From: a virus
DNA length: 64,000 bases
IMG/VR virus record: IMGVR_UViG_3300048817_000084
Direction: 5' to 3' (one strand)
Positions 2,399-27,786 of the stretch are shown in pieces. Made by a program: the position numbers and the translations under genes. Below the pieces are notes generated by a model. That model saw only the letters and a list, made by a program, of their open reading frames with translations. It ran no database searches and was not told where the DNA came from. Positions within the stretch are counted from its first letter, which is position 1, and each line of letters opens with the position of its first letter.

Positions 2399-4636
2399 TT
2401 GAAAACACTCCTATTTGCACTGCTGATTATAGTGGCATCGACCGCGTTCGCTGGAACTGTGACCGGACCCCTACAGGGACCATCCGGTCTGCCGGTCAAG
2501 AATGCAACCCTGACGTTCCAATTGCAACAGAGCGGTCTGCTTGTCGGCACCGGCAACATCGCCCAGCTAACAAGTCAGTGCTATACCAGCACAGATGGCA
2601 CAGTCGTAGGCCTGCCCAACCCTTTGCAATTCCCGACCACAACGACCAGTGTAACCAGCACGCTGCCCAGTGGCATCTACTTTATCGAGTACACGTTTTA
2701 CAATTCTGCTGGCGAGTCATTACCGTCCCCTGAATTCAGAATCCAGACGGTAACCCTGCAATCGATCTTAGTGTCGCCACCCGTATCATTCCCGGCAAAT
2801 GCGACTGGCATCAAGGTTTACATTGGCACAGCAAGCGGTGCAGAGACGCTGCAGGGCACCACTACCAGCGCGACAGCACAATACACGCAATCTGTCCCGC
2901 TGGTTACAGGAGCTAATCCACCAGGGAGCAATACGTCACCATGCACAATCGCATTCAACGACACCATCATTCCGTATCAGGGCTACAACGTCTCATTGAC
3001 CAGCTCAAGCGGCAACGCTTATCCAGGATGGCCGCAAGCATGGCAACTCAACGGCGGGCTTTCTGGCACAGTGAACGTATCGGCGGGGGCCCCGCTATGG
3101 AATGGGACGGTGATCTACCCAATGCCGATCCTTTCGCAGCCCCTGAATCATGGACCGCAGAGTATCTCCGGACCGCTCGACTTTGGTGGGTACAACGTAA
3201 CGAACATGGGCAACACGACCTCGTGCTCGGTGAATGGAACGGTCAACGTTGAGTCGAGCTGCTTCGCCAGCTATCTCGACCTGGGCGCGAAGGTCACCGC
3301 GGCGCTGGCGTCATGCGGCAGTCAGTGTGAACTCTACATTCCGGCCGGCAGCTATTCATACACAACGTCTATTTCGCTGCCCTTGAACATCTTCGGCACC
3401 TACAAGTTGACCGGCTCTCCTGGCACGGTAATCAGCTATACGGGCACAAATGATGCGATTGTTACCCCAATTGGCACCAATGGACCCGGCGATTCGCAAC
3501 TGATCATTGAAGGCTTTCAGGTCAACGGTACAGCGTCGGCAACCAGCGGCATCCATACGTATCCGACCAACCGGATCACAATTCGCAACATGCTGATCCA
3601 GGGATTCGCGGCAGGAGATGGAATCAGGGTTGAGGGCACAAACAGCTCAAACATCTACGACAACCTGATCACGAATAACCTAAACGGGATTCACCTGATC
3701 CCGACCATCTGCAACGCGTCCTACCCTTATACCTGCAGTTCTACCGGATCGGGCCCCAACATCTTCACGCCGAACGCGATGCACATCCACGACAACCAGA
3801 TTGTGGTCAACAGCAACTGGTGCATCTGGAATGACCGCAACAGCAACCCAGGCGGCTTGACCGGATCGCTCAACAACAGCTATCGTGACAACGACTTAGA
3901 GCACTGCGGCACCAGCCCCAACGGCGGATCAATCTACGATATGCATTCGCGGGGCACGATCATCGATGGGAACTACTTCGAAGCTTCACCGCACCAGATC
4001 GTGCTCGGTGAAGCAGGCGCGGGCTCGGCACTGAATACGGCTGGGGCGAACGTGATCAACAACTACTTCACGACTTCGCCACCGATAGCGCCTGCAACCA
4101 AGCAGTATGAAATCGAGCTGCAGAACGTAGTCGATACGCGGATGGAGGGCAACTCAGAGCTTGGCACCGCGGGAATCGGAGGAGCAACAAACTGCTTTAT
4201 CAACTCTCTAGTCGGTGGGGAGACGCGCACGTTTCTGGGGCGCAACGCCATCTTCCAAAACTCGACCGATGGTTCAGGCAATCAGATTTGCTCGGCTGGA
4301 GCGGGCGTGCTGACCTTTCTTGGTGCGGGCTCGACTACACTCAGGGCTTTGGGCTTCCTCGGATATATGGGCGACCAGTTTTTTCAGATCAACACTGCGG
4401 TCACAACTGAATCGGTGGGGATTCAGACCATGACCATTAATGGTTCGTGCCAGCTTGCACGCAGCACAGGCGACAGCGCTGCTATCAATGCAGGCGCAAC
4501 CTCAATTCTGGCTAACACTTCCAAGGTGACGGCCGTATCGGCTGGGGGAATTACGGTGGTCCATCCTTCAGGCACGGCGATGACATACGACATCATCTGC
4601 GAAGACAATCCAACCGGATCTTACGGATTCCCATGA
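2399..4636 (+). CDS. exported parallel beta-helix protein, tailspike/depolymerase-like (745 aa)
   Basis: TTG start gives the signal peptide MKTLLFALLIIVASTAFA/GTV. The N-terminal part resembles a carboxypeptidase-regulatory-like domain. It carries an FTN-GES-type module (YFIEYTFYNSAGESLPS) and beta-helix repeats (NRITIRNMLIQGFAAGDGIRVEGTNSSNIYDNLITNN). Confidence 0.75.
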   Translation: MKTLLFALLIIVASTAFAGTVTGPLQGPSGLPVKNATLTFQLQQSGLLVGTGNIAQLTSQCYTSTDGTVVGLPNPLQFPTTTTSVTSTLPSGIYFIEYTFYNSAGESLPSPEFRIQTVTLQSILVSPPVSFPANATGIKVYIGTASGAETLQGTTTSATAQYTQSVPLVTGANPPGSNTSPCTIAFNDTIIPYQGYNVSLTSSSGNAYPGWPQAWQLNGGLSGTVNVSAGAPLWNGTVIYPMPILSQPLNHGPQSISGPLDFGGYNVTNMGNTTSCSVNGTVNVESSCFASYLDLGAKVTAALASCGSQCELYIPAGSYSYTTSISLPLNIFGTYKLTGSPGTVISYTGTNDAIVTPIGTNGPGDSQLIIEGFQVNGTASATSGIHTYPTNRITIRNMLIQGFAAGDGIRVEGTNSSNIYDNLITNNLNGIHLIPTICNASYPYTCSSTGSGPNIFTPNAMHIHDNQIVVNSNWCIWNDRNSNPGGLTGSLNNSYRDNDLEHCGTSPNGGSIYDMHSRGTIIDGNYFEASPHQIVLGEAGAGSALNTAGANVINNYFTTSPPIAPATKQYEIELQNVVDTRMEGNSELGTAGIGGATNCFINSLVGGETRTFLGRNAIFQNSTDGSGNQICSAGAGVLTFLGAGSTTLRALGFLGYMGDQFFQINTAVTTESVGIQTMTINGSCQLARSTGDSAAINAGATSILANTSKVTAVSAGGITVVHPSGTAMTYDIICEDNPTGSYGFP

Positions 4637-5115
4637 TTACAATCAATAAGAGCGCCACTGCCGACACCAGAACTTGCGACTTCGCGAACACCAGCAAGGA
4701 GACCCTGCTCGAAAGCAGCATCCAGCACATTCACGACGTGCGCGCAGCCTTGGACTTGTTTCGGTTCCTGATCGCCGAGCGGGCAAAATATCACGATCTA
4801 GATAAGATTTCCGACATCGACGGCTTTCACCGCGACTTCCTGACCGGGTTCAAGCAAACCGAGTGGTGGGACGCGCACCGCAAGATCAACCGGCATCACC
4901 TTTTGCAACCAGACGGGGTGCCTAGTGACGTGAACCTGATTGACGTGCTGGACATGATTGCGGATTGCGTGATGGCAGGCATGGCGCGCTCAGGGTCGGT
5001 CTATCCCCTAGACATCCCGACCGAAGTTCTTGTCCGGGCCTTCCAAAACACCGTAGAGTTGCTCAATGCCAACGTGGCAGTAGCCAGCGAGGGAATAGCT
5101 ACCTCGTCAAGGTGA
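4633..5115 (+). CDS. cytoplasmic HD-motif protein, DUF5662-like by eye (160 aa)
   Basis: ATGA overlap with the upstream gene. No signal peptide. Motifs HIHDV...YHDLDKIS...WWDAHRKINRHH. Family assignment is from memory. Confidence 0.55.
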   Translation: MITINKSATADTRTCDFANTSKETLLESSIQHIHDVRAALDLFRFLIAERAKYHDLDKISDIDGFHRDFLTGFKQTEWWDAHRKINRHHLLQPDGVPSDVNLIDVLDMIADCVMAGMARSGSVYPLDIPTEVLVRAFQNTVELLNANVAVASEGIATSSR

Positions 5116-5136
5116 TTCGCTAAGCCCTCCAACATC

Positions 5137-5529
5137 TTGCGCAAACTCCTCCTCGCTCTTCTGGCGATCGCATTGCTGTGCCCAAAAGTGCAGGGACAGT
5201 CTACCTGGGAGTTTGATCACAAGACGTATTCGTTTGATCCTACCGACCTGCATTGTGGCCCGCTGCGGTATGCGGTCATGCAACCAATGTGCGATGGATG
5301 CTTGGGTGATCCGGTGTTCGCCTGCCAATCGGAGCCCGGTCTATCGCTCATCGACGTCGCATTGCAGGAGACAAAGTGGGTTGTGGACTGTCTTGCGGAG
5401 CCGTGCAAGCCACCCGCGAATCAGCCGCCGCCGCAATGGGTAGCCGCGTTTCCGTCACCACCAGAAGAGCTGACATATATTGCCGATCCCGCGACTGCGG
5501 GCGAGCTCGTATACCGGAATCTACACTGA
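5137..5529 (+). CDS. exported Cys-rich small protein (130 aa)
   Basis: TTG start. Signal peptide MRKLLLALLAIALLCPKVQG/QS. Several Cys in the mature part. Shares a 23-nt identical signal-peptide stretch with the gene at 19168. Confidence 0.6.
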   Translation: MRKLLLALLAIALLCPKVQGQSTWEFDHKTYSFDPTDLHCGPLRYAVMQPMCDGCLGDPVFACQSEPGLSLIDVALQETKWVVDCLAEPCKPPANQPPPQWVAAFPSPPEELTYIADPATAGELVYRNLH

Positions 5530-8500
5530 AGAAACTCCTGGGGGTCCTGATCCTTCTGCTTTGCTCTGCACCCATGCAGGGACAGAACGTCGAAGGCCAG
5601 GTCATCGCAAGTCAGTATCAGTACAAGGTCGCAGGCTACGCGCCAAATACCTACTCATGGCCAGGTGGCACCTGCAATGCATCTGGACCGCTGAAGCAGT
5701 TTGCTTTCTGGGCTCCTCCCTCCGGAGCTGCCGCACCTGTAACGATCGTGGACGGCTCCCCGGCGCTGACTGAGACCGTCACGCCCACCGCAGTTCTTGA
5801 CAACAACCAAACCTGCGCTATCTCGATCGCTGCGGTCAATTCCCACCAGGTGCCGTTCTTCATTCAGTCAGGCACGGGCGGCTTGCAGGAAGCGTTAAAC
5901 CAGAACATGACTACGCCAGCCACCAACACTGTGATCTTGAACAGCGCGTGGTACCAGAGCGTGGGTACAGCGAATGCGCAGGCGGTTATCGCGGCGGCAA
6001 AGGGCAGCATAGAGCTTGGCCTGGTCGACGTAACCACGGTGCCGACCAGCTACTACTCGTGGAACGGCACGCAGTACATCGCAGTAGCCGCGGGCGGTGG
6101 GGCAAGCGCACCTGCAACCACGCTGGTCTACAAGGGCACTGGCGGACCGAACGGCATCATCCCTGCAACCCCTGGCGTCGACTATGTAATCCCTTCGGGC
6201 TCGATCACCGGCAACGCAGGCACCGCAACCAATGTTGCATACACCGGTCTGACGGGCCCAGTCACGATATGGAACCAGAACACCACCGGGTTAGCCGCAA
6301 CCGCGAGCGCGTTAGCTGCAGCAGGGACGCCATGCATTATCGGCTATGCTGGCACGGGCGTTGATGTTCATGGCAACTCGCTAAACTGCCAAGCTATTGG
6401 AAGCGGAGGAGGCGGCGGCGGTCCCGGGAGCGCATTGCAACTCGGCGCTTACCTGACCTCCGGCAACACGGTCTCTGGCGCGCCTGGGCTCTATGCATTA
6501 CAGCCAACCACGACACTGCTGCAAGCGAACGCCTTCTTTGCTGCGGCTCCCAGCGGCACGACCACGGCGATTCTTCCTCAGGGCATGGCGCAGCTGCCCT
6601 TTACTAACAATTCAGTGCACACGAAGGACCTCCGCCAGGGCGCGGACTATCTGCAGATTTCGCAATTCGGCGTCGTCTGCGATGGTGGGCAGACGCCCTT
6701 AACTGTATCGCTGACCGCAGGCTCCAATTTGGTAAGCGTGGGTTCGCTGATCGGAGCGGTAACGGATATCGGCAAGACGATGACTTTCACCGTGCAGACT
6801 GGCTACGGGTACCAGTCTCCGCAGTATTCGTGGACGCCCACGATCACGGCCTATACCTACCCCAACTTTTCACTTTCATCGAATGCGCCGTTCAACTTCA
6901 GCGGCTTCGCGCAACTGGGCACCGACAACTCCGCTCCCAACGCCGGCAATCCCGGGGGTGTGTCGAATATCCAGAATGCGATGAATAGCGCAGGCGGATC
7001 GCCACTGAGCATCCCTGTGGGCTGCAGAATGCTGGTCGCCCAGCCAATCGCATGGAACAACGGGCAGTCGCTCATCGGCCAGCAGGCGCAATTTGGCGGG
7101 TTTATTGGCGGCCCGGGGCAGGACATCCTACAGCAGCCGGACGCGTCAGGTCAGGGCAAGGCAACTGCTGCAGGCCTGCGTGTCGAGGATGTTGGCTTCA
7201 CGCTTGATTCGGGCGTTGACCCCACGGGCATAGTTGGTGGACCGTGGACCAGCTACAACGCAGCCGGAACGCCGACCGTCCATACGCCGCTCTATCGCCC
7301 GCTTTACCAGCACACTCCGCTGGCAAATCAACCATGCGCGCCCGGGTGGGTACTGAATTGCACCAACGGTGTGGCCAGCACGGCACAGAACTCCTCGGTC
7401 ATCTGCGTACCCACCGCGCTTGGCCGTGTGCCCGCAGTTGGGCAGACGATTATGTTTCCGTACTTCACCACGATATTCACGGCGACGGTCTCAAGTAACA
7501 CGGGTGCTGGATGCTCGGCAGGGTTCACAGGCACAACGCTTTCGACTGCGCTGCCCAACACATCTGGGTACACGGTCGCGCAGGCAGAATGGTTCACCGG
7601 CACAGCGATACAAAGCACCACAACTACGATCCCGACCACGATCACGTATCCCCTGACTTTGACCCTGACGCTGTCGACCGCGCCGATCCCGGGCTTTGAG
7701 TCGAACTTCGCGCAGCATGGGCACATCAAAGTATGCGGCATCGAAGCCGATTACATGGGGAGCAATTCGTACGGCCCGTACACGGCCATCCTTCGCCGCG
7801 GCCCTGCGACCTCTGCCGGCTGTTCGGGCACCACGGTGATTGCGCCGATGAATCCGTGCCCGGCGAAGAACCTGTTTGGGAGCTCGTCCGATCAGCCGTG
7901 GCCCGTCATCCCATCGATCAACACCAACGACTCGACTCCGTCGGGCGCGAACTGGTTCCCAGGTGAATGCGGCGGTGCAGCAGCGCTGTCGTTCCCCACC
8001 GCCAACGCTCAGACCTTTGCGAACACTGGGCTGACGAACTCTTTCCTCGAGCACCTCTACTTCGGGACGACGCAGATACAGAACACGAATGGCACGCAAG
8101 ACTTCTACTCTGCTTCCAATGCCGTCCCCTACGCCGTGGACATGGGTGGGTTCAACTCGAATGGCGTGATGTTTGGGATCATGCAGGGCGCCGCATCTGC
8201 TGGGCAGCATTATATCGGTCCTGTCGGCCCGACAGGCACGGGAAACCACATCCATGACATGTCATTCCGGGGAGCCTATCCGCTGGCCCTGGTCGACTTC
8301 CAGCAAAGCTTCATCGCCCGCCTGGACAACTACAGCACCGAGATTTCGCCTTATGACGGCACCGCAGTCGGCGCGACGACCTGTCTTTATCAGGGCTACA
8401 CGCTGGATGAGCAGACCGGAAGCCTTGTGACTTTTAATGCGCAGAATCAGACCACTGTGGCCGCCTGCGAACCGGAGAACGGGTCTCACATCGAAGTAAA

Positions 8501-13264: not shown

Positions 13265-13286
13265 AAATCGTCGAACGGGGGAACGA

Positions 13287-13562: not shown

Positions 13563-13573
13563 ATGGAGAAGCT

Positions 13574-14661: not shown

Positions 14662-14858
14662 AACAACCAACACACGACGAGATTGAACGCGAAGCCTATT
14701 CCGAATGGGAAACGGCCGGCAGACCGGAAGGCTTCGACCCGCAAACCGGCATGGATGTTTCCGTGGCGATATGGCTGCACTCGGAGAGCCTTCTGCGGGA
14801 GTTGATGAATATCCCACTTGGGCCTGAGACGCGGCCGTCTTACGTGGTGATGCCATGA
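14658..14858 (+). CDS. DUF2934-like small protein (66 aa)
   Basis: ATGA overlap. Motif IEREAYSEWETAGRPEGFD resembles the DUF2934 signature AYxxWxxxGRPxG. Confidence 0.45.
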   Translation: MKQPTHDEIEREAYSEWETAGRPEGFDPQTGMDVSVAIWLHSESLLRELMNIPLGPETRPSYVVMP

Positions 14859-14870
14859 GCGCGGAGCTAG

Positions 14871-17590: not shown

Positions 17591-17591
17591 G

Positions 17592-19063: not shown

Positions 19064-19171
19064 ATGTTGAAGAAAGCAGTGCTGTTCCTGGCGCTCTGCC
19101 TGACTGCGCTCATTTCTCCGTGGGCAGGCGCGCAGGGCGTAGCTGACCGAACAAAATTAGCGATTCGATGA
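19064..19171 (+). CDS. 35-aa signal-peptide-only ORF (leader ORF or gene remnant)
   Basis: Not in the ORF track. AGGA RBS. Translation MLKKAVLFLALCLTALISPWAGAQGVADRTKLAIR. Its TGA overlaps the ATG of the next gene (ATGA). Confidence 0.35.
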   Translation: MLKKAVLFLALCLTALISPWAGAQGVADRTKLAIR

Positions 19172-22122
19172 AAAAACTCCTCGCTCTTCTGGCGATCGCC
19201 GCTGCGTGCCTGCTCGGACAGGATAGCTATGCCCAAAATGTCGAAGGCCAAATCATTGCTTCGCAGTTCGGCGCATACCAAGTCCCAGGCATCGCCACCG
19301 GATCGCTGCAATTTGAGCCGGCCAGCTGCCAGGTGATTGGTGGTGGCAAGAACTTCAATGCGTTCAGCGTGGGTGTGCCGGTAAAGATTGTTGACTCGAA
19401 CCCCCTGCTGAACGAGATCGATACGCCGTCCTCAGTGCAGATAAACGCCTGCACCATATCGATGGCGACAAGCCATATTCATGCAACGCCGTTCTATGTG
19501 ACATCAGGCACAGGCGGCCTGCAGGAAGCACTGATCAACGGGCTCTCGAAGGCAGGCGGCGCAAATACCGTCATCCTGAACGCTGACTGGTATGCGCAGG
19601 TGCTGCCCGGTAATCCAGCGACTGTGATTGCTGCGGTCAAAGGAAGCACCACGCTGGGCCTAGTGGACGTAACCACGACTCCGTACACGTCTTACACCTG
19701 GAATGGTTCGGCCTACGCGGCAAATGGAACAGGCGGCGCAAACACTCCAGCCACCAGCAACCTGCTGAAGGGCAACGGCGCTGCTAACGGAGTAATTCCA
19801 GCGGTTCCAGGCACAGACTTTCTTGTTCCAGGGGCCCTGCCCGGCACCACAACAGCAACGACTCAAACGACAGGCGACAACACGACCAAGGTGGCGACCG
19901 ACGCGTTCGTGCTGGGCAATTCGGCGACCGCGTCCATCCCAAACACGGTGGCACTCCTCAAGGGTGCTGGGGTTGCTGGTTCGGCGGCAGCAGCTACAGT
20001 AGGTACTGACTACTTTGGTCCGCAGACAGCCACGGCCGCATATCAGACCCCTCTGTCTACGGGAGCAGGAACCACCTTCGCTCCGGGTGGCGTCCCGGTG
20101 TCATTCGGCACAGCGCAAACCCAATACATCCAGCAGCAAGTCACCAACTCGAATTACACCACGCTAAACATCAACTCCCTCAACGATGAAATTTGGGTCG
20201 AGGGATTCACTGGCGGACCATATACGGGAATCGGTCAGACGCAGGTAGCATGGGTGACCGCGACGAACTACCCGCTCTGCCAGAACGTGAGTTACTCGGG
20301 GGGAAACTACGTAGCCATCACCTACCCGAATTCCTCGGTCACTCCGACCAGCAACGTTACGGTATGGTGGCCAAAAGCAACCTCTGACGCCACCACGCAA
20401 GCAGATTGCGCCTTCGCTAGCGCGGCAGGTAAGGCGGCCGCCACTAGCAAGCAGCAGACCTTGCGCGCTGGCTCTGGTAGCTGGAATATGACTGGCTGGA
20501 TTGAGCCCGGCGGCCTCTACTCGGTCAACATCAAAAGCTGCGGCATCTTCTGCGGCACCTGGAATTTCACCGGCACGGCTGCCGTGCCCATGGTGCAGCG
20601 TGCCACAGGTGGAGCGTTTACCTTTCTTGACGTGTCAGACGCCTACTGGGAGCCGAATCAAGTAGCCTCCTCGATCTTCGACCTGGGAGCGCTGAATCAA
20701 AGCCATTTCGACAACATGCAGTGGGACAACCCTGCACCTCTGGGAACGGGGAACTCGGGGAACTTCTTCGCACGTTTCGGTGAATCGGGCGGCGACGGAT
20801 TTCAGGTCTATCCAAACAACATCACCATGGGCACTTCGCCCACAAATCACAATACGGCTACGATCACCGCGAACTTGACCGGCACCACGCTGACATCGTT
20901 CACGCTTGTCAATGGTGGGTCTGGGTACCTACCGGCCGCCGCCAACAACATTCTTTACCTGCAAATCAACGGATACAAAGGGGGTACGTCTTTCCAGCCC
21001 TGCACAGTCATGCCGACATGGTCAGGCAATCCATTCACCGTTGTCTCCGGGGTCATAACCGCCGTAGCGGCCCCGACATCAGGAGGAACAGGTTGCTCGG
21101 GAACCATCGACGTTGCCGCCTACAGCTACTTCCCTGTGCAGTGGGGCATCTACAATAACGCCTCGGACTCGACGCTCAAAGACATCACCATCTATGCCAG
21201 CAGCCCTTACGGCGCCGGGATCTATGACAATGGCGGGGACACGCACCACATCCACATCCATCCCAGCTTTATTACCAACGGAATCGCGACCATCTGCGCG
21301 AACGATACCTATGAAAGCACGGAGCTCGACAACGTTTATAACCAGGGGTTTCAGTTCAACCAGCCGTTTGCGGGCACGGGATGCGCGGTATCTGGAACAC
21401 ATTCTTATGGCGCTACCGCGAAGGGAAACGCGGTCTATTACTTCGCAAGTGCATTAGCTCAGGTCACGATTGGGACCTCTGCCTCTCTTTCCGGAGGGAC
21501 GACCGCGGCTGACTGGCAAGAGTTTGTAACTCAGTCCGGGACGATCGCCGCAACTTCCGACTGGGCAACGAAAGCTCCATCCGGGCTGGTGGTTACTGGA
21601 AACGACCTCTCCGCTGGCGAGGCCATGGGCGACTGGCAGCCGATCATCAACGCGACCACAGCAAATATCGGGACCCTGAATGCTACAACCTTCAACCCGT
21701 CCAGCATCGGCTCGGTGAGCATCACGGCGAATACGCTGGGCACGGCTACCAGCGGAACGAATTACAGCTCTGGGAACATTACCCTCTCGGGCAGTTACTA
21801 CAACTCGACGGCTCACCTTAGCAACTGGGTAATTACCAACCAGATCGGCGCTGGAACCAACCCCGTAACCGCGCTCAACTTTGCCTGCTCCACTGGGTCG
21901 ACGGGTCAATGTCAGGCTAATTTCAGTAACTCCGTTCTTGGCGCGCAAATCATTAAGACGACCGGTTACACGGTAGCTGCTTTGCCCTCCGCATCAACTT
22001 CTGGTGCAGGGGCACAGGTTACGGTCACTGATGCAACCACCTTCACTCCGGGAACTTGCACTGGGGGCGGGTCGGATTACATGATCGCCATTTCGAACGG
22101 GTCGACATGGAGCTGCCATTAA
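19168..22122 (+). CDS. exported fibre-like protein, family member B (984 aa)
   Basis: Signal peptide MKKLLALLAIAAACLLGQDSYA/QNVEG. Shared N-domain. Tail-fibre motifs PGTDFLVP and TGDNTTKVATDAFVLG. Confidence 0.8.
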   Translation: MKKLLALLAIAAACLLGQDSYAQNVEGQIIASQFGAYQVPGIATGSLQFEPASCQVIGGGKNFNAFSVGVPVKIVDSNPLLNEIDTPSSVQINACTISMATSHIHATPFYVTSGTGGLQEALINGLSKAGGANTVILNADWYAQVLPGNPATVIAAVKGSTTLGLVDVTTTPYTSYTWNGSAYAANGTGGANTPATSNLLKGNGAANGVIPAVPGTDFLVPGALPGTTTATTQTTGDNTTKVATDAFVLGNSATASIPNTVALLKGAGVAGSAAAATVGTDYFGPQTATAAYQTPLSTGAGTTFAPGGVPVSFGTAQTQYIQQQVTNSNYTTLNINSLNDEIWVEGFTGGPYTGIGQTQVAWVTATNYPLCQNVSYSGGNYVAITYPNSSVTPTSNVTVWWPKATSDATTQADCAFASAAGKAAATSKQQTLRAGSGSWNMTGWIEPGGLYSVNIKSCGIFCGTWNFTGTAAVPMVQRATGGAFTFLDVSDAYWEPNQVASSIFDLGALNQSHFDNMQWDNPAPLGTGNSGNFFARFGESGGDGFQVYPNNITMGTSPTNHNTATITANLTGTTLTSFTLVNGGSGYLPAAANNILYLQINGYKGGTSFQPCTVMPTWSGNPFTVVSGVITAVAAPTSGGTGCSGTIDVAAYSYFPVQWGIYNNASDSTLKDITIYASSPYGAGIYDNGGDTHHIHIHPSFITNGIATICANDTYESTELDNVYNQGFQFNQPFAGTGCAVSGTHSYGATAKGNAVYYFASALAQVTIGTSASLSGGTTAADWQEFVTQSGTIAATSDWATKAPSGLVVTGNDLSAGEAMGDWQPIINATTANIGTLNATTFNPSSIGSVSITANTLGTATSGTNYSSGNITLSGSYYNSTAHLSNWVITNQIGAGTNPVTALNFACSTGSTGQCQANFSNSVLGAQIIKTTGYTVAALPSASTSGAGAQVTVTDATTFTPGTCTGGGSDYMIAISNGSTWSCH

Positions 22123-22138
22123 AAGCCTTCTGGCGTTC

Positions 22139-24784
22139 GTGATCTTCCTGCTGTGCTGCACGCATGTGCAGGCACAGAACGTGGAAGGCCAGATCATCGC
22201 TTCGCAATACGGCGAGTTCAAGGTTGCCAGCCAGAGCACAGGCGCTTTCCAATTCCCGCCCGCTACATGCCAGGTGAGCGGTGGAAACAAGAACTTTGAT
22301 GCCTTCAGTGTCGGCACTGCAGTAAAGATCGTTGATTCAAATCCCGCGCTGACAGAAGTAGCCACCCCAAGCAGCGTATACATCGGGCAGTGCGTCATCA
22401 ACATGGCCACGACTTACACGCACGTGCCGCCGTTCTATCTGACCTCCGGAACAGGCGGCCTGCAAGAGGCAATCACAGCAAACCAGCAAGGTATTGCAGG
22501 GCCAAACAGCGTCATTCTCAACGCGGAATGGTACGCACTGATTCAGCCGCGAAACGCCGCAACGGTCATCGCTTCCGTACATGGCAACACCAGCATGCCA
22601 CTGGTCGACATCACGACTACCCCGTACACGTGGTATCAGTGGGGCGGCTCGGCCTATGCTGCAGTGACTATCAGCGGCAGTGGATTGCCCCTATCCGGCG
22701 GGACGATGTACGGAACTTTGTTTGCGCCGAACATCAACGGCGAAGTCTATCCAGCTTCGTGCGGCCTCTCGCCTGCGCCTTCATGGTGCTCGGGAACGAC
22801 TGCGGATGCGTGGATTCGCGCGGCATGTACACAGCTACCTGCGGCTGGTGGGACGATCAACCTGCTTGGATTGACGGGAACCATCGCAGCGAGTGTCCCA
22901 TGCAGCACGCCGACAAAGCAGGTAATCACGCTCCAAGACCCAACTTCCACGTTGACCATCACCGAATCAGACGGGGGAATCGTCTTCCCGCTGGACAACG
23001 GGAGCATGCTTCTTGGGCCAGGAGCGGGGCAATGCACCAATGCTGGCGGGATTCATCTGGCAAGCGGTGCAAGCGTGACAGCCATCGTTGGGCCAGCGCA
23101 CACCGATGGGACGCAGGAGAATTTCACCGCCAATGGGCTTTGCATCTACGGAGCCGCCGGTGCGACAGTATCGAAAGGCTTGATTTACGCCAGCCACACG
23201 TATGCTAATACCTCATTTGATGGCAATACCATCAGCGTGTGCAACACGGCTTGCATGATGATTCTAGACAGCGGATCAATTCAGATCACCAATAACTGGC
23301 TGAACGTCTCTGATGGAGTGGACTCTATCACCGGAACCCCTCTGATCATTCAGGGAACAGGTGGAGGTGGGTGCAACGTGGGTCCAATCTGGGTAACCGG
23401 GGACCAGATCGAGCACGCTCTCGGAGGCAGTCCAGAGATTGTCATCGAAGGAGACGGAACCGGGTCGCCTCTTGCCTGCGATATCCACATTAAGGATGTG
23501 GGAATAGAGCGACAACATGGTGGTGGGACACCATCATCGATTGGGATAAGCATTGCTGATTGCAAGAATTGTAGCGTTGACAGTATTGTGTCGACGGGTG
23601 TAACGGGCGGTTCGGCGATGGTGCAGATTGCGTCGAACAGCTCCGGCAGTGTGGCCAACGTAAGCCTGACCAACATCAGCAACATCTTCGGCTCCTATGC
23701 CAACACGGTCAATGACACGTCGGCTGGAGTTGAGTTATCGTTTCTCGCTCAGCCACTTGTCGCCACCTATTACTCTAACCCGGGTTATGTTCAACCCCCG
23801 GCACTTCCCGGAACCACGCTCCAATCAGTGGGCAGCGATGTGATGAGTGGCTTAGGTAATTTCTCCACCGGGAGCAGCACAATCGGAACCGACTTTTACG
23901 TTACCGGATGCTTCGGTTCTATTACCTGCACCCTCACGCGCACCAACTCGTCGCCACCACCCGGCTACACATACTCGCAAGAAGTCGACATTACCGCGAA
24001 CTCTGATACTGGCGTCGGGTTTAATGGTTTGCAGTATGGTTCAGCAGTTAGCTTCACGGCGGGGCAGACTTACATCGCCAGCTTCTGGGGTAAGGGAGAT
24101 GGCACGTTCACTGGGTTGCCGACATTTGTTCTGCAAGATACGTCGATCCCGGCCTACTATTGCACCAACATATCACCCACAGCGTTTACGACAACGTGGA
24201 CGCTCTACTCGTTCACTTGCACGCCGACTACATCCGGCAGCGCTTACCTGGCCGTGGCTGCACGCACTCCGATCGGGGCGACGGGAGCCTTTTGGTTTGG
24301 CGGCTTCGTTGTCGCTCCAGTAGCTCCGCTCACTCCCGGAAATCTCCTGAGTTCCATTTCCCCTTACGGGGTTGGTCCAGCCACCACCGGCCAGCAGGCC
24401 ATCACCATCAACAGTACGCCCTGCGAGTTGGGGGGAAGCTGCAGCGTAACGAGTAGCGGCGCATCACCTTACACGATTACCGCTTCCGGTACACCAGTCA
24501 TCAATCTGGCGAACGGCCCACTGCAAACGATAACCCTAACCTCCGCCGCTACGGCAACCGTGACAGGTATCGCGGCCGGAAGTCGCTTGGCTATGCAGAT
24601 ATGTGAAGGGTCCACGGTCTACGCATGGACTTGGGCCGCCGCAATCCATGGGGGAATTTGCGTAGGCCCATCGTGCTCTCCATATCCATCGCAGGCAAAT
24701 ACCTGCTCGATGCAAACATTCAATTCGTATACCGGGACGACGCTGGTGCCGGAGAACATAGGAGTCGTAAATGTCTCTCCGTAG
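22139..24784 (+). CDS. exported beta-helix protein, family member C (881 aa from GTG; possibly starts at ATT 22118)
   Basis: Shared N-domain (QNVEGQIIASQYGEF...TSGTGGLQEA). Beta-helix-like middle part. The GTG start gives a truncated signal peptide. In-frame ATT at 22118 restores (I)KSLLAFVIFLLCCTHVQA/QNVEG. Confidence 0.8.
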   Translation: MIFLLCCTHVQAQNVEGQIIASQYGEFKVASQSTGAFQFPPATCQVSGGNKNFDAFSVGTAVKIVDSNPALTEVATPSSVYIGQCVINMATTYTHVPPFYLTSGTGGLQEAITANQQGIAGPNSVILNAEWYALIQPRNAATVIASVHGNTSMPLVDITTTPYTWYQWGGSAYAAVTISGSGLPLSGGTMYGTLFAPNINGEVYPASCGLSPAPSWCSGTTADAWIRAACTQLPAAGGTINLLGLTGTIAASVPCSTPTKQVITLQDPTSTLTITESDGGIVFPLDNGSMLLGPGAGQCTNAGGIHLASGASVTAIVGPAHTDGTQENFTANGLCIYGAAGATVSKGLIYASHTYANTSFDGNTISVCNTACMMILDSGSIQITNNWLNVSDGVDSITGTPLIIQGTGGGGCNVGPIWVTGDQIEHALGGSPEIVIEGDGTGSPLACDIHIKDVGIERQHGGGTPSSIGISIADCKNCSVDSIVSTGVTGGSAMVQIASNSSGSVANVSLTNISNIFGSYANTVNDTSAGVELSFLAQPLVATYYSNPGYVQPPALPGTTLQSVGSDVMSGLGNFSTGSSTIGTDFYVTGCFGSITCTLTRTNSSPPPGYTYSQEVDITANSDTGVGFNGLQYGSAVSFTAGQTYIASFWGKGDGTFTGLPTFVLQDTSIPAYYCTNISPTAFTTTWTLYSFTCTPTTSGSAYLAVAARTPIGATGAFWFGGFVVAPVAPLTPGNLLSSISPYGVGPATTGQQAITINSTPCELGGSCSVTSSGASPYTITASGTPVINLANGPLQTITLTSAATATVTGIAAGSRLAMQICEGSTVYAWTWAAAIHGGICVGPSCSPYPSQANTCSMQTFNSYTGTTLVPENIGVVNVSP

Positions 24785-26714
24785 CTTAGCGCTATTCGTA
24801 TTCCTGGCATCTGGTATGGCTCTCGCGCAGGGCACTGGAGGTAACGGCGTGCCGGGTCAGTCAATCGGCACTGGTAATTACACCCTTGGCAGTACCCCGC
24901 TCGTTTCTGGAACCCCCACCACGACCATCGCAGGACTTGCGCAGTTGCAAAACGTATTCTACTTATCCTCCGCTTCCGAGATTGGAGCGCAGTGCAACTC
25001 GGCAGTCACTGCTCTCGGTTCGACTGGGGGCGTAATCCAGCTACCCAACTCCACCTCGCTGACGATGACCACGGCCTGCACAAACATCCCCCCGCAGATA
25101 TCGATTACTGGATATGGCAAGAACGCCACCATCATCACTTGCACGGTAGCGGGTGACTGTTTTCAATTCACCATGAACCCTACGACCGTCGGTTCGATCG
25201 CATCGGGGGTTTCAAGTTTTGAAATCGACGGCAGCGGGGCCAGTAATCAAGTTCTTATGCACTTCAACGGCGCGAGCGGCTACACGCTTCACGATCTACA
25301 ATTTGAGCCCTATGGCGGGTCCGGTAATGCGGCTACCTGTCTCGAATTTGATAACTCCGCAACGGGTCTCTTTACGGAAAGAAACCGATCCTACAGCGTA
25401 AATCTTGAGCGGCAATGCACGACCGGTGTGCTTTTCAATCAGAACTCAGGAGACAGCAGTTACTCTTTCGGCTACAACAACTTCGAGTTTCAGCTAGCCG
25501 CGGAGGGATCGAATTATGGAATTGTGTTCAACGGCAACGGGATACTCTACGGCGGCTCGCTGACTGTCTACTGCAACCACATCGGCCCTGGCGGTGGATG
25601 CGTGCAGTTCAACAACGCCTTTAATGCTAACGGTATAAGTGGAGCACCGGGAGAAAGATTATTTATCACAGCAGAGGAAGATGGCTCGGGCGCTGGCACG
25701 GTCCTGGCGGCCACCGGGACAAATAGCCTGAATTTCGACGGGATCATATTTAATGGTTCGTCCTCGGCTACGGCACTAGCGACGAACACATCCGTGGCAG
25801 GAGGCGCGACCCTTTATATCTCCAACCAGTACGGGGTTCAAGGATCAAACGGCACAGCACAATCCGGGGTTGCTGTAGATACCAACTACAATACCGTGGC
25901 TGGTGCCACACCGAGGTCTTTCCTGTGTCCAAACATAGGCGATGGGGCATGGTGCGAGACTTTAGTAGGTACAGGCACCGGTACGGGCAATGCTGCCACG
26001 CTGCAATTTTTCAATGAGGGCAACAATAACTCCGGCAGCCGCGGCATTTTGGGCATGCCCGGAAACTCTGCGATTGAATGGGACAACGCTGGAAACGCTT
26101 ATGTGACGGGCGGGAACCTCATTCTGGGGAACACGACCTACGCTACAATCCAGATGGTTGGCCCCCATACCTGGTATGACGAAATCAGCTCGACCGGGCA
26201 ATACATTCTGTTCGATGTTACAAGCAACACAACGCCGTTTTATATCACAACGGCGGGCTCCCCCTACAACAACGCTTTTGCGGTTGGTGCTAACTCGATA
26301 TTTGGGTGGAGTTCTCAGGCTCAATATGCCAATAACGCCGCCGCTGACACCGCCTTCTCGCGTTCGGCTGCAAACGTAGTTGCTTGCGGCGACGGCACGC
26401 AAGGGGACTTCTCTTGCCGCTTAAAGTTGGCCGCGATAACTCTGGCGGGCGGTACGTCGCCAACGATCACGGGATGCGGTACGATATCGGCGCAAGCGGG
26501 CGGTGCTACGGCAGGAACCTTTACTACCTCTTTAGCCGGAACCTGCACGGCGGTAATCCCATTACCCACTGTAGCTCACGGCTATATCTGCAATGTGATG
26601 GATCAAACGTCTCACACGGTACTTCCGCAAAGTGCCAATAGTACGGCAAGCTGCACTGTTACAGGCACAACTGCGGCAAGCGATGTTCTGGTATTCTCGG
26701 CGCTTGGCTGGTAG
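24771..26714 (+). CDS. exported beta-helix protein (647 aa)
   Basis: Signal peptide MSLRSLALFVFLASGMALA/QG. Tailspike-like N-cap (GGVIQLPNSTSLTMTTAC...ISITGYGKNATIITC). C-terminal module shared with members A and D. Confidence 0.75.
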   Translation: MSLRSLALFVFLASGMALAQGTGGNGVPGQSIGTGNYTLGSTPLVSGTPTTTIAGLAQLQNVFYLSSASEIGAQCNSAVTALGSTGGVIQLPNSTSLTMTTACTNIPPQISITGYGKNATIITCTVAGDCFQFTMNPTTVGSIASGVSSFEIDGSGASNQVLMHFNGASGYTLHDLQFEPYGGSGNAATCLEFDNSATGLFTERNRSYSVNLERQCTTGVLFNQNSGDSSYSFGYNNFEFQLAAEGSNYGIVFNGNGILYGGSLTVYCNHIGPGGGCVQFNNAFNANGISGAPGERLFITAEEDGSGAGTVLAATGTNSLNFDGIIFNGSSSATALATNTSVAGGATLYISNQYGVQGSNGTAQSGVAVDTNYNTVAGATPRSFLCPNIGDGAWCETLVGTGTGTGNAATLQFFNEGNNNSGSRGILGMPGNSAIEWDNAGNAYVTGGNLILGNTTYATIQMVGPHTWYDEISSTGQYILFDVTSNTTPFYITTAGSPYNNAFAVGANSIFGWSSQAQYANNAAADTAFSRSAANVVACGDGTQGDFSCRLKLAAITLAGGTSPTITGCGTISAQAGGATAGTFTTSLAGTCTAVIPLPTVAHGYICNVMDQTSHTVLPQSANSTASCTVTGTTAASDVLVFSALGW

Positions 26715-26900
26715 CTAGTAGCGCGGCCCTTTCCTTCGGGAAACCCAATACGTAATCAGTCCGACGATGCCTGCTGAGACGGCGATAAAAAACGCGAGCC
26801 CAAGAGCCCCGGGTAGAGACTCAATCAGCAAATGCCAGACGAAGCGTAAGAAGTTCACCGCACCACTATAGCAAATCCAAGAGTTCAGGAGAAAACACAT
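26715..26900 (-). CDS. small two-TM membrane protein on the opposite strand (61 aa)
   Basis: Fills the only + strand coding gap in the array exactly. Translation MCFLLNSWICYSGAVNFLRFVWHLLIESLPGALGLAFFIAVSAGIVGLITYWVSRRKGPRY. Third-position GC is about 60% by a hand count. Confidence 0.4.
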   Translation of the reverse strand: MCFLLNSWICYSGAVNFLRFVWHLLIESLPGALGLAFFIAVSAGIVGLITYWVSRRKGPRY

Positions 26901-27786
26901 GGTTCGCAAAAAGATAGTTGTTGCCCTTCTGTGCCTGTCGGCAACCGGCTTTGCACAGACAATTACCAAGGCAGGTATAGCCACTCAGTTCAACCAGTGG
27001 CGCGCGCCCGGGACCACCAACCTCATCGCTGGAGCCAATGCCCTGGTGCCGATTGCCTCATGCGCAATCTCGGCAGGAGGGGTGAACACTTATGCCCTTG
27101 CGGCATCGACGCCGATAAAAATCAACGACCCCGGCAATCCGGCGATTGACGAAATTATCACGCCTACCGTGGTTGTGCAGGGGGGTGCATGCACAGCGAC
27201 CTTCACCACCAGCAATGCCCACCCGGCGCCGTGGTACATCACCAGCGGAACGTTCGGACTGCAGGACGCAATTAATGCGGTCGTGGCGACTGGGGTTATG
27301 AATGTGGTGCAGCTTGATGCTGCGTGGTTCAATAGCGGCGGCACGGCGACGACCATCTACGGCGCCGCTGGAAGCCCATACGTATCGATTGTGGCGTCAA
27401 ACCTCACGCCCTACCCAACCTATCGATGGAATGGAACTCACTATATTCCTACCTACTCTCTGCTTGGGAGCATCGGCACGGTTCCGGCAATTGCAGCAGG
27501 TGCGGCGGCCGGCAGTTCCCCAACTGTTCTAACTGCGGCTGGATCTTCCGGCAACATTATCACCGCGGACGTGACCACGGGGACAGCGACGACGACTGGC
27601 ACGCTATTTACGGAGACAGTTGGGACCGCTCCAGCCTCAGGAAACATGGACTGCACCGTCCAGAGCGTCGGCGCCAACGTTCCACCTGCATTCACGGTAT
27701 CAATCACTGGAGGTGTTGCGACTATTGCCGTGGCCGCTGCTCCGGTGGTGTCGACGGCATACATCTTCGCACTGGCGTGCAACTAG
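26899..27786 (+). CDS. exported minimal family member D (295 aa)
   Basis: Signal peptide MVRKKIVVALLCLSATGFA/Q. Divergent shared N-domain (WYITSGTFGLQDAIN, YRWNGTHYIP) joined directly to the shared C-terminal module. Confidence 0.7.
   Translation: MVRKKIVVALLCLSATGFAQTITKAGIATQFNQWRAPGTTNLIAGANALVPIASCAISAGGVNTYALAASTPIKINDPGNPAIDEIITPTVVVQGGACTATFTTSNAHPAPWYITSGTFGLQDAINAVVATGVMNVVQLDAAWFNSGGTATTIYGAAGSPYVSIVASNLTPYPTYRWNGTHYIPTYSLLGSIGTVPAIAAGAAAGSSPTVLTAAGSSGNIITADVTTGTATTTGTLFTETVGTAPASGNMDCTVQSVGANVPPAFTVSITGGVATIAVAAAPVVSTAYIFALACN

Follow-up and report, generated by a model that had tools for sequence, protein, structure and literature searches.

The textbook view has tailed-phage particles assembling entirely within the cytoplasm, and no tailed phage is known to load exported proteins onto its virions. 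No description of exported tailed-phage fibres, or of an exported glycan-active battery, was found in the literature searched. Partial analogues of the proteins described here are nevertheless known. The Bdellovibrio MAT fibres resemble them in having a signal peptide, a conserved N-domain without a PDB homologue, and a variable fibre and tip, and are proposed to be anchored at the cell surface. WceF and AlgG, enzymes of exopolysaccharide (EPS) clusters, are also close partial analogues. The statement of the first-pass annotation that no described system matches either of its readings was nearly right. In addition, the cultured lytic podovirus Tunturi_2 carries the signal-peptide trait, which is present in its genome but was unreported before.

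We analysed a 64,000-nucleotide stretch of viral DNA (IMG/VR record IMGVR_UViG_3300048817_000084), hereafter the window. It contains a phage element that is temperate, as had been proposed: it has an integrase, and Mb-scale Acidobacteriaceae contigs carry integrated relatives. Its podovirus-like layout is collinear with those of Tunturi_2 and Tunturi_3, both podoviruses verified by electron microscopy, and the 571-aa ejection-like protein shares 31% identity with Tunturi_2 gp38. An array of 25 kb, about one third of the genome, lies between phage genes and has the lysis cassette inside it.

2399..4636, +, 745-aa signal-peptide protein; TTG start; mature N-terminus GTVTGPLQGPSG; 14 Cys
4633..5115, +, 160-aa DUF5662-like protein inside the array, no signal peptide
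5137..5529, +, 130-aa small signal-peptide protein; TTG start; 6 Cys
5526..10013, +, 1495-aa fibre-like protein with signal peptide, shared N-domain and long variable region; CTG start overlapping the upstream TGA stop; 26 Cys
9991..12750, +, 919-aa signal-peptide protein with three CHB_HEX_C/Fn3_assoc and one Big_2 domain (Pfam); 12 Cys
12761..15681, +, lysis cassette within the array
12761-13264 and 13287-13562, +, two lysis-cassette proteins with a C-terminal TM segment
13547-14155 and 15241-15681, +, other lysis-cassette genes
14155-14661, +, endolysin (GH108 and PG_binding_3), no signal peptide
14960-15244, +, holin candidate with two TM segments
16128..16484, +, 118-aa conserved protein, no signal peptide, directly upstream of the second block; in 46 of 71 related loci
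16484..17590, +, 368-aa signal-peptide protein; Gly-rich N-module with LSGTYPNPSI; 4 Cys
17592..19013, +, 473-aa signal-peptide protein, right-handed beta-helix glycan enzyme (lyase- or epimerase-like); 14 Cys
19168..22122, +, 984-aa fibre-like protein with signal peptide, shared N-domain and variable region; 14 Cys
22118..24784, +, protein of about 888 aa with signal peptide, shared N-domain and variable region; start at ATT 22118 (overlapping the upstream TAA) or GTG 22139; 24 Cys
24771..26714, +, 647-aa signal-peptide protein with Gly-rich N-module; 16 Cys
26899..27786, +, 295-aa stand-alone protein with signal peptide, shared N-domain and conserved beta-sandwich C-domain
27787..28221, +, 144-aa conserved protein without signal peptide, flanked by the 295-aa N-domain gene and the portal gene; in 45 loci
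28223..49435, +, virion and packaging module without signal peptides: portal-like (877 aa), scaffold-like, capsid-like (425 aa), tail (1003 aa) and 366-aa proteins, putative acetyltransferase (position only), ejection-like proteins (650 and 571 aa), terS-like protein and TerL; roles other than TerL assigned by gene order and size only
47828-49435, +, TerL (phrog_979 match, 1e-37)
62479..63693, -, tyrosine integrase (Pfam Phage_integrase and SAM-like N-domain), a marker of temperate lifestyle

From the ejection-like proteins to terS/terL (46229-47390), no fibre-like gene is present, in agreement with the first-pass annotation.

All ten plus-strand genes previously proposed to encode signal peptides exist as open reading frames, and canonical signal peptides were confirmed on them, with the start of the gene at 22139 corrected. 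Signal peptides were judged by a hydrophobicity heuristic, not by SignalP. In each N-terminus a positive n-region precedes a hydrophobic core that begins at residue 4-9 (Kyte-Doolittle mean of the best 10 residues, 2.4-3.5), followed by a small-x-small motif for cleavage; the predicted sites are AFA/G, VQG/Q, MQG/Q, AHA/A, SIA/Q, AWA/A, SYA/Q, VQA/Q, ALA/Q, and GFA/Q. By the same scoring, the region 27787-49435 encodes 17 head, tail, and packaging proteins, none with a signal peptide. Among the other plus-strand reading frames scored, these 17 included, only one reached 2.0 (37181-40192, 2.39); it was rejected, as its hydrophobic stretch runs from residue 25 and the N-terminus ahead is negatively charged. 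A stricter home-made rule found seven of the ten genes; it missed a short overlapped gene and two that begin at non-canonical codons, and its sole other match in the window is a minus-strand lipoprotein. The full signal peptide of the gene at 22139 (IKSLLAFVIFLLCCTHVQA/QNVEG) is obtained only with the ATT start, which, like the CTG at 5526, overlaps the upstream stop codon. One public call for the 5526 gene (P0373) begins at an internal ATG within the signal peptide.

Among relatives of the shared N-domain, 111 of 120 carry a signal peptide, while nine are borderline or come from calls truncated at the 5' end. The same applies to 126 of 140 representatives with at most 50% mutual identity, where the rest are mostly mis-started or borderline calls. 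IMG/VR relatives at 30-34% identity retain the signal peptide, which is conserved as a property and not as a sequence. Because the sequence drifts while the n-h-c organization and small-x-small motif are kept, selection appears to act on recognition by Sec and signal peptidase, not on a specific protein contact. These data support genuine signal peptides, kept by selection, at the N-termini.

The mature ten proteins contain 14, 6, 26, 12, 4, 14, 14, 24, 16, and 4 cysteines in gene order. All counts are even, which by parity alone is expected about once in 1000 (our own arithmetic). Signal-peptide proteins of related loci showed 49 even and 7 odd counts, versus 106 and 103 for proteins without a signal peptide (binomial p = 7e-9), and family representatives showed 102 and 10. 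Even cysteine counts together with signal peptides make export and disulfide folding look real, and export of the array proteins is very likely. The earlier suggestion of receptor-binding proteins with very unusual N-termini understated the case, because the even counts suggest that folding is oxidative and takes place outside the cytoplasm.

It is very improbable that the hydrophobic segments are unused for export, being captured-gene leftovers or uncleaved helices for trimerisation or tail embedding, with virions assembled in the cytoplasm as usual and disulfides formed after release. Such a scheme would keep the conventional assembly route; at least one gene was taken from the host along with its signal peptide, and the virions of phage Milano are rich in disulfides without export signals (PMC10811340). 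However, the n-h-c and small-x-small pattern is kept over more than 1000 clusters, down to 30% identity, despite free drift. Two genes keep the full signal peptide at the cost of a CTG or ATT start, and cysteine parity sets the signal-peptide proteins apart from the other virion proteins of the same phage.

Synteny of the array in related prophages was confirmed: the same arrangement recurs at at least 66 genome loci, in viral contigs of about 70 kb, and in one cultured lytic phage genome. The shared N-domain was likewise found at at least 66 genome loci, all except one labelled Acidobacteriaceae. In essentially every locus examined its genes are linked to a phage, and no homologue outside phage contexts was found among these loci. 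A portal homologue lies within 10 kb of the N-domain gene in 45 of 71 related loci, and the endolysin is kept in 55 of 71. A host island of secreted proteins beside a prophage, or mis-called starts, is an extremely improbable source of the pattern. One gene does have host homologues in EPS clusters, and several starts are non-ATG; however, the array is flanked by phage genes and holds the lysis cassette, its arrangement recurs, and independent public gene calls give the same N-termini. Coincidental adjacency is already contradicted by the synteny data.

Four paralogues in the window carry the shared N-domain. The stand-alone 295-aa protein was matched in all 71 related loci searched, near the portal gene, and its two conserved cysteine pairs (C55/C98 and C252/C294) are invariant or almost so. 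Its AF2 model (pLDDT 91), including the N-domain, gave no PDB fold match and no known virion-anchor fold. N-domain proteins form 1064 clusters at 50% identity and reach 2196 aa. Among the representatives listed, the domain starts at or before residue 57 in all but one, and it precedes variable regions, an architecture typical of receptor-binding proteins. The C-terminal part of 19168-22122 has only 14 homologues: 12 have a signal peptide, and the other two are a fragment and P0133 (997 aa), which shows none.

Instead, the N-domain could tie exported fibres to an envelope component of the cell that makes them, following the proposal for the Bdellovibrio fibres; an infected or lysogenic cell would then bear phage adhesins or enzymes that serve to exclude superinfection, to adhere, or to remodel the matrix. 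The architectures are the same, the N-domain lacks a PDB homologue in both, and several paralogues have one N-domain in common. We nonetheless regard this as improbable. Start and stop codons overlap throughout the array, indicating translational coupling with the late lysis and virion operon; promoter- or terminator-like sites are not in excess in the array, and no independent signals were seen. The earlier ideas of superinfection exclusion or EPS remodelling in the lysogen fit this coupling poorly. Furthermore, a host-envelope anchor should not vary between phage lineages having C-terminal domains in common, and the N-domain homologues found are confined to phage contexts.

The mature parts are supported as fibre-, depolymerase-, or Ig-like, with some revision of the first assignments. 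The Ig-type domains proposed earlier correspond to the CHB_HEX_C and Big_2 matches in 9991-12750, which has homologues in 49 related loci, most with a signal peptide. A parallel beta-helix was confirmed in 17592-19013 only. A weak repeat match indicates one in 2399-4636, the remainder of which is probably beta-helix; this protein has homologues with signal-peptide-bearing N-termini in 25 related loci, and a weak Ig/FN3-like segment in common with the tail protein 37181-40192. The motifs PGVDYVIP, TGDNTTKVATDAFVLG, and LSGTYPNPSI are all present, but as possible tail-fibre markers they gave no match in PHROG, Pfam, or tblastn against GenBank phages. The Q(Q)TGG..NGVPG type of N-module in 16484-17590 recurs behind signal peptides in relatives, and 22118..24784 has a weak CBM_4_9 match in its variable region.

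Host EPS clusters encode a secreted beta-helix enzyme, and 17592-19013 is, judged from its homologues, a captured copy of it. Three full-length homologues (53-58% identity) sit in Wzx/Wzy EPS clusters, and the phage protein aligns end to end with the host enzymes and has no anchor module. Its AF2 model (pLDDT 92.2) matched PL6/PL9 lyases, AlgG/AlgE epimerases, and tailspikes in Foldseek. Scoring of 8000 candidates gave 861 homologues at E <= 0.001; among the matches listed, 97 of 120 passed the hydrophobicity screen, many failures being 5'-truncated or longer multi-domain forms, and 103 of 120 had even cysteine counts. It is the only array gene found with homologues away from prophages, and these point to the origin of that gene, not to coincidental adjacency.

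Alternatively, all ten proteins could be a free exported glycan-degrading battery acting in the periplasm, on the cell surface, or in the matrix and never in the virion, a reading favoured by the host homologues of this enzyme and by its fold match to lyases and periplasmic epimerases such as AlgG. The battery would cut host exopolysaccharide, capsule, or LPS late, letting progeny escape matrix and debris (receptor-destroying), while an unrecognised tail protein, e.g. the 366-aa or 1003-aa protein, would bind the receptor. CHB_HEX_C and Big_2 domains, also present in the array, are typical of secreted bacterial proteins. The evidence for export and disulfides applies equally, the array adjoins the lysis cassette in both the window phage and Tunturi_2, and cytoplasmic virion assembly would be kept without any departure. 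Soluble enzymes in lysates could also account for the inhibition zones without plaques that Tunturi stocks gave in spot tests on other strains (PMC11924767). We consider this, the main rival reading, possible but on the whole unlikely. It leaves the window phage, Tunturi_2, and possibly an SU10-like contig without a recognisable fibre or spike, gives 25 kb to accessory enzymes, and explains neither the match to the 295-aa protein, next to the portal gene, in all 71 related loci nor why N-modules are particular to each phage lineage while C-terminal parts pass between lineages.

Two signal-peptide proteins also occur in an unrelated SU10-like phage contig, within its structural module and adjoining the adaptor gene. 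They have in common a 165-aa N-module (42% identity, E = 3e-38) unlike that of the window, and their C-terminal parts are homologous to window proteins; residues 56-457 of 24771-26714 are 46% identical to one such protein. Lineage-specific N-modules with exchanged C-terminal parts are what virion docking predicts. In Tunturi_2, signal peptides are found on gp12, gp13 ('tail fiber protein'), gp14 ('pectin lyase'), gp16, and gp17 ('virion structural protein'), with no obvious common N-module. No large fibre-like protein without a signal peptide was seen in Tunturi_2, and gp34 (124 aa) is its sole further product with a tail-fibre annotation.

We lean towards array proteins that are exported first, some then being loaded onto virions. 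Tentatively, the array may comprise receptor-binding and depolymerase proteins matured in the periplasm, the fibre-like ones joining particles after the holin opens the inner membrane. The precursors would be translated late, as the coupled operon suggests, exported by Sec, cleaved by signal peptidase I, and folded oxidatively with all cysteines paired, consistent with parity and the conserved pairs. Members without an anchor module, such as the 473-aa enzyme, may act as free enzymes, presumably on the host's own exopolysaccharide. On fibre-like members, the lineage-specific N-module directly behind the signal peptide could dock to fibre-less podovirus particles only once cytoplasm and periplasm mix, shortly before lysis or in its course; this step is speculative. 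Docking is suggested because no other receptor-binding protein is recognisable in the phage and because the endolysin has no signal peptide; such endolysins usually need a large-hole holin. That signal peptides occur on exactly the ten fibre- or enzyme-like proteins, whereas virion and packaging proteins have none, also favours the reading as a whole. Against it, at least part of the array is probably never virion-bound, as the 473-aa enzyme suggests, and one docking site would be contested by four paralogues that share an N-domain, a pattern that also fits the Bdellovibrio fibres. The N-domain model without a known virion-anchor fold, the Tunturi_2 proteins without an obvious common N-module, and the Milano virions with disulfides but no export signals also weigh against it. 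The 366-aa protein and the 1003-aa tail protein, which lack signal peptides, are candidate receptor binders.

A widespread phage family of the soil bacteria Acidobacteriaceae, and one cultured phage of another lineage, appear to produce all their tail-fibre and sugar-cutting proteins with export signals and paired cysteines, at odds with the textbook rule for tailed-phage assembly.

From about 2.3 kb to 49.4 kb, the + strand of the window is a single run of tightly packed, frequently overlapping genes. The predicted features are as follows.

Features of the phage genome in the window.
2399-12750, + strand: first block of large proteins
12761-15681, + strand: lysis cassette, including two proteins with C-terminal transmembrane (TM) segments
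14155-14661, + strand: endolysin with GH108 and PG_binding_3 domains and no signal peptide
14960-15244, + strand: holin candidate with two TM segments
16128-27786, + strand: second block of large proteins
After the second block, + strand: 877-aa portal-like, scaffold-like and capsid-like proteins and the 1003-aa tail protein
Further on, + strand: putative acetyltransferase (by position), two low-complexity ejection-like proteins, terS-like protein and TerL
49.6-63.7 kb, − strand: secreted and lipoprotein accessory genes, ERF, HNH, DUF1064 and tyrosine integrase
Among these accessory genes, − strand: 154-aa protein with a signal peptide
50476-51138, − strand: GDSL/SGNH esterase lipoprotein
51149-52900, − strand: 583-aa protein with a Tat-like RREF motif

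PHROGs and Pfam searches of the virion module gave confident names only to TerL (phrog_979, 1e-37) and the endolysin. The other PHROG matches were few, weak or partial, and none was to a T7-type protein. PDB sequence searches with the 1003-aa tail protein, the portal and a 984-aa fibre found no relatives, and tblastn searches of GenBank phages with the portal, the 295-aa protein (26899-27786) and a motif-rich fibre segment found no match. Membership in the T7-like Autographiviridae was rejected, as there were no T7-type homologues and the gene order was merely loosely similar. The window phage is a very divergent temperate phage. Its label as podovirus-like in the first-pass annotation agrees with a layout of large tail protein, acetyltransferase and ejection-like proteins that is common to the window and to Tunturi_2 and Tunturi_3, two phages of one Tunturiibacter psychrotolerans strain. 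No att repeats were found between positions 1-2400 and 63.5-64 kb, indicating that the prophage ends lie outside the window, and no tRNA genes were found in the window.

Several further genes were noted in this genome. Zinc-ribbon-like CxxC...CxxC insertions are present in the portal-like protein (28223-30856, aa 229-257) and in a 323-aa protein of the head/tail region (35044-36015, aa 251-278), with weak Pfam DZR matches. Pfam gave no match for the small ORF at 41572-41985, which lies between the tail protein gene and those of the ejection-like proteins; its position is that of genes annotated as acetyltransferase in Tunturi_2 (gp35) and Tunturi_3 (gp22), and it is a conserved virion-module gene. 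Among the early/recombination genes, the 471-aa product of 55321-56736 (− strand) contains 17 cysteines and has no match in Pfam. The three accessory genes with export signals at 49637-52900 (− strand) converge on the end of terL and could have further functions in modifying the envelope or exopolysaccharide (EPS), e.g. deacetylation.

Ten + strand genes in the two blocks of large proteins, starting at 2399, 5137, 5526, 9991, 16484, 17592, 19168, 22139 (or 22118), 24771 and 26899, had been proposed to encode signal peptides. Heuristic scoring bore this out. All ten carry a basic n-region, a strongly hydrophobic core and a small-x-small site, and the tripartite N-terminus of Sec/signal peptidase I substrates (uncharged h-region; small residues at −3 and −1) was found in 10/10. 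Among the other scored + strand ORFs, including all 17 head, tail and packaging proteins, the N-terminal hydrophobicity maximum exceeded 2.0 only in the 1003-aa tail protein (37181-40192), which was rejected as a signal-peptide protein because its hydrophobic stretch begins at residue 25, behind a negatively charged N-terminus. A stricter rule recovered seven of the ten, and its sole other match in the window was a minus-strand lipoprotein. By inspection, the array proteins have no lipobox and no PEP-CTERM sorting signal at their C-termini, and both of these readings were discarded. Two small proteins encoded inside the array have no signal peptide, a 160-aa DUF5662-like protein (4633-5115) and a 118-aa protein (16128-16484; kept in 46 loci); both might serve the neighbouring gene products as cytoplasmic chaperones or assembly factors.

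Two array genes appear to have unusual start codons. The start of 5526 is CTG and overlaps the upstream stop (CAC-TGA/CTG-AAG), and the most likely start of the 22139 gene is ATT at 22118, which also overlaps the upstream stop (CAT-TAA/ATT-AAA). Each of these starts retains a full signal peptide of the MKK/MKS type, and public gene callers choose a downstream GTG or ATG within the signal peptide for both genes. The overlap of near-cognate starts with stop codons suggests termination-reinitiation coupling through which the signal peptide stays complete.

The proteins of 5526, 19168, 22118 and 26899 have in common a domain of about 190 aa (N-domain) that immediately follows the signal peptide. 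A profile of this domain collected 149 proteins, and a signal peptide was present in 111 of the 120 listed, the other nine being 5′-truncated calls or borderline. The signal-peptide sequences vary freely among these relatives. An exhaustive HMM search extended the family to at least 1064 clusters at 50% identity. The N-domain begins at most 57 residues into the protein, except in one listed representative where it is internal, and the variable regions that follow it extend these proteins to as much as 2196 aa. Signal peptides were found in 126 of 140 new representatives; most of the others were mis-started or borderline calls, and they include a gene of the window itself, whose call begins at an ATG within the signal peptide. 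IMG/VR relatives at only 30-34% identity retain the signal peptide. This conservation indicates that the signal peptides are selected, not accidental.

The mature cysteine counts of the ten array proteins are 14, 6, 26, 12, 4, 14, 14, 24, 16 and 4, every one of which is even, and the virion proteins of the same phage are cysteine-poor with mixed parity. Among non-redundant ORFs of related loci, signal-peptide proteins had 49 even and 7 odd counts compared with 106 and 103 for the rest (binomial p = 7e-9), and representatives of the N-domain family had 102 even and 10 odd. Conserved cysteines form two pairs in the 295-aa stand-alone N-domain protein (C55/C98 and C252/C294) and number 12-14 in the family of the 473-aa protein encoded by 17592-19013. 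This parity points to oxidative folding outside the cytoplasm and lends indirect support to export and cleavage, with the caveat that phage Milano has virion disulfides without export signals (PMC10811340). We consider it quite improbable that the signal peptides are non-functional, given their retention among divergent relatives and the cysteine pattern of the proteins that carry them.

The array might also have adjoined phage genes by coincidence or artefact. We scanned one genome per species and obtained 66 loci, all but one of which were labelled Acidobacteriaceae; the exception was a 24-kb contig of a Verrucomicrobia-labelled MAG. Many of the loci lie on contigs of 0.3-2.5 Mb, indicating integrated prophages. 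A portal homologue was present within 10 kb in 45/71 loci and the endolysin in 55, and the others were mostly neighbouring blocks of the same prophages. The order of the 295-aa N-domain protein, a 144-aa protein and the portal is conserved across loci. The window itself is 100% identical over 20.9 kb to contigs of other assemblies, one of which is 71,337 bp. This conserved linkage shows that the array is part of the phage and not an adjacent island, and chance adjacency or artefact is very hard to credit. An autonomous moron or lysogenic-conversion unit was likewise rejected, since the starts and stops of the array overlap or abut the lysis and virion genes and a promoter/terminator scan gave no excess over shuffled sequences.

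PHROGs, Pfam and NCBIfam identified almost nothing in the ten proteins besides CHB_HEX_C, Fn3_assoc and Big_2. The domain content given in the first-pass annotation was recovered in part: Pfam confirmed the chitobiase-C-type/Fn3_assoc and Big_2 domains in 9991-12750, and an AlphaFold model confirmed the beta-helix for 17592-19013. The three motifs proposed there as tail-fibre markers are present in array proteins and gave no PHROG or Pfam match. AF2 modelled 17592-19013 as a right-handed beta-helix (pLDDT 92), and Foldseek matched this model to PL6/PL9 lyases and the epimerases AlgE and AlgG, with phage tailspikes including CBA120 TSP3 and Det7 lower down. A beta-helix or fibre fold together with glycan-related domains is thus represented by this model and by the Ig and CHB_HEX_C domains of 9991-12750. 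The model of the 295-aa protein had no match in the PDB at E < 1e-3 in Foldseek and only weak matches in BFVD, to uncharacterised or collagen-repeat phage proteins. The array contains a shared, lineage-specific N-module without similarity to known tail anchors. A weak Ig/FN3-like segment of 2399-4636 (window 2660-2850) resembles repeats of the 1003-aa tail protein, itself without a signal peptide (37900-38500; 30% over 141 aa, pairwise E = 0.002).

The 473-aa beta-helix protein has many relatives. Among the candidates scored, 861 matched at E ≤ 0.001; the majority are about 475 aa long, and the majority begin with a signal peptide. Three full-length homologues (53-58% identity) lie within host Wzx/Wzy EPS clusters of Acidobacteriaceae, next to genes for Wzz, an initiating transferase, a flippase, a Wzy polymerase and glycosyltransferases.

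Secreted beta-helix proteins of about 475 aa with 14 cysteines in Acidobacteriaceae EPS clusters.
L077, 10001-11428
L080, 10001-11431
L081, 10001-11449

In L077 and L080, the beta-helix gene adjoins small PP-binding/thioesterase genes. This secreted protein seems to belong to the core of such EPS clusters and is as yet uncharacterised. The homologues in host clusters indicate that the phage captured a host EPS-processing enzyme, signal peptide included. By context, 17592-19013 is not itself an EPS-cluster enzyme, as the gene lies in a phage; its homologues are, and it is a captured relative. Exported beta-helix enzymes of EPS biosynthesis clusters are known from alginate (AlgG and AlgL). The captured enzyme recalls AlgG and Pantoea WceF, a host-encoded, exported tailspike-like enzyme of an EPS cluster with a Tat signal (PMC7949094). 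Unlike WceF, 17592-19013 is phage-carried, has a Sec-type signal and lies beside nine more exported proteins.

As 17592-19013 has no anchor module, it is most likely a free enzyme. All array proteins might similarly form a free exported battery that never joins virions. We regard this as the main rival reading, less likely than the combined model proposed below; a free enzyme would not need lineage-specific N-modules.

The trait was also found in other phages. L073, a 105-kb phage contig whose portal is of the SU10/P22 type and whose adaptor is of the SU10 type, encodes two signal-peptide proteins (16 and 18 cysteines) within its structural module. A 165-aa N-module of their own is common to the two (42% identity, E = 3e-38), and in their C-terminal parts they show homology to proteins of the window (46% over 417 aa to 24771-26714). 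The two genes flank a 250-aa protein without a signal peptide at L073 10001-16431 (GC 54%), just upstream of the adaptor gene.

Tunturi_2 (PP885685) is a cultured lytic podovirus isolated on Tunturiibacter psychrotolerans (PMC11924767). Signal peptides were found on its gp12, gp13 (annotated as tail fiber protein), gp14 (pectin lyase), gp16 and gp17 (virion structural protein), whose genes (9802-22744) are flanked by a tail gene and the lysis cassette. Neither the paper that describes the phage nor its supplementary tables mention signal peptides (PMC11924767). Counted after residue 25, the cysteines number 20, 10 and 20 in gp12-14, 1 in gp16 and 33 in gp17; four of the five signal-peptide proteins were counted as even. 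No fibre-like protein without a signal peptide was seen in Tunturi_2, save the 124-aa gp34, also annotated as a tail fibre protein. As in the window, the signal-peptide block lies by the lysis cassette, and a big tail protein, acetyltransferase and ejection-like proteins lie downstream; gp38 is 31% identical to the 571-aa ejection-like protein of the window (44513-46228). Unlike the window phage, Tunturi_2 is lytic and of another lineage, with a portal that is not detectably similar, no N-domain family and no obvious common N-module among its signal-peptide proteins. Tunturi_2 and Tunturi_3 share a host strain, yet Tunturi_3 lacks the trait, as does the siphovirus Tunturi_4. Exported fibres are thus not a host requirement, and the trait is a property of particular phages. 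The accession of Tunturi_1 is PP887698, not PP885684.

We propose a combined model that takes in the observed gene arrangement, signal-peptide and cysteine patterns, modular architecture, phage linkage and host origin of one enzyme: the proteins would be exported, and the fibre-like ones would later join virions. We give it nearly an even chance. Judging from the sequence patterns, array proteins would be exported by Sec, cleaved, and disulfide-bonded in the periplasm. More speculatively, the fibre-like members would dock on pre-assembled fibre-less particles after the holin opens the inner membrane. The virion would then be completed outside the cytoplasm by Sec-exported, oxidatively folded receptor-binding proteins, a new assembly route that we advance tentatively, as somewhat short of an even chance. 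Such extracytoplasmic finishing appears to be used by several Acidobacteriaceae podovirus lineages, including Tunturi_2.

Docking is favoured for three reasons. No tailed phage can do without a receptor-binding protein, and in the window and in Tunturi_2 signal peptides are present on all the large candidates of fibre or spike type. The N-modules are lineage-specific while the C-terminal parts cross lineages, as predicted if each protein docks to the tail of its own lineage. Finally, an endolysin without a signal peptide by the usual rule implies a large-hole holin, which would mix particles and periplasmic proteins. On the other hand, docking would be without precedent, the N-domain resembles no known anchor, and four paralogues would compete for one site.

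The array architecture also equally resembles surface-anchored fibres, the mosaic adhesive trimer (MAT) fibres of Bdellovibrio bacteriovorus, which have a signal peptide, a conserved beta-rich N-domain common to paralogues and without a structural homologue in the PDB, and a variable phage-fibre-like shaft and tip (PMC10769870). This organization of signal peptide, shared N-domain and variable fibre recurs in the array. MATs, however, are chromosomal predator genes displayed on the predator's own surface (PMC10769870), whereas the array is in a phage late operon. The Pfam scan of the array proteins found no Peptidase_S74 chaperone domain, which many MAT members have, and the N-domain profile search gave no Bdellovibrio-labelled match. 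A host-envelope anchor would not need lineage-specific N-modules, and MAT-like surface display is improbable.

Among the nearest known systems are the virion tailspike and fibre depolymerases of podoviruses, such as P22 gp9, CBA120 TSP1-4 and those of multi-depolymerase Klebsiella phages like PhiK64-1. As in these, a single genome encodes multiple large beta-helix or fibre proteins in the late structural region by the lysis genes, with a conserved N-module ahead of variable, horizontally exchanged C-terminal parts. Known tailspikes and fibres, however, lack signal peptides, contain few cysteines, and are both synthesized and attached in the cytoplasm. All array members carry a cleavable-type signal peptide, which sets them apart from proteins synthesized for the cytoplasm, and an even, often high cysteine count, and their N-module matches no known anchor fold. 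Sec-exported phage proteins of the lysis and exclusion machinery include the spanins. Others are the signal-peptide endolysins of fOg44 and the J5a clade (PMC8878798) and the T4 antiholin RI (PMC8385771). Like these, the array genes are predicted to encode late products that cross the inner membrane before lysis via a cleavable signal peptide, but the known examples are small lysis regulators or effectors and not large modular proteins of the receptor-binding type. We found no literature on tail fibres or spikes with signal peptides in tailed phages; the nearest cases were signal-peptide endolysins, spanins, T4 RI, WceF and MAT fibres. The separate parts belong to known kinds, namely receptor-binding proteins of the depolymerase type, EPS enzymes that are exported, and fibres resembling MATs. 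What is new is their combination, a phage's whole fibre and enzyme set as predicted Sec-exported, disulfide-bonded proteins, across more than 1000 protein clusters.

Tailed-phage assembly is taken as wholly cytoplasmic, and annotation pipelines, host-range predictors and prophage cargo calls presume fibres and spikes without export signals. At least 1064 clusters (50% identity) from phages of Acidobacteriaceae, a dominant soil family whose phage biology is almost unexplored, break this rule consistently and under selection. Tunturi_1 or Tunturi_2 on T. psychrotolerans X5P2 offers a cultured test system, with Tunturi_3, a phage of that strain without the trait, as a natural control, and the relation of the phage enzyme to those of host EPS clusters points to a likely substrate. 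If the proteins are on virions, they would define a new maturation step that is periplasmic, oxidative and post-holin, and a route to acid- and protease-hardened receptor-binding proteins. If they are not, they would be the first large Sec-exported phage depolymerase battery, aimed at the host's own exopolysaccharide, with a bearing on soil matrix turnover and phage release.
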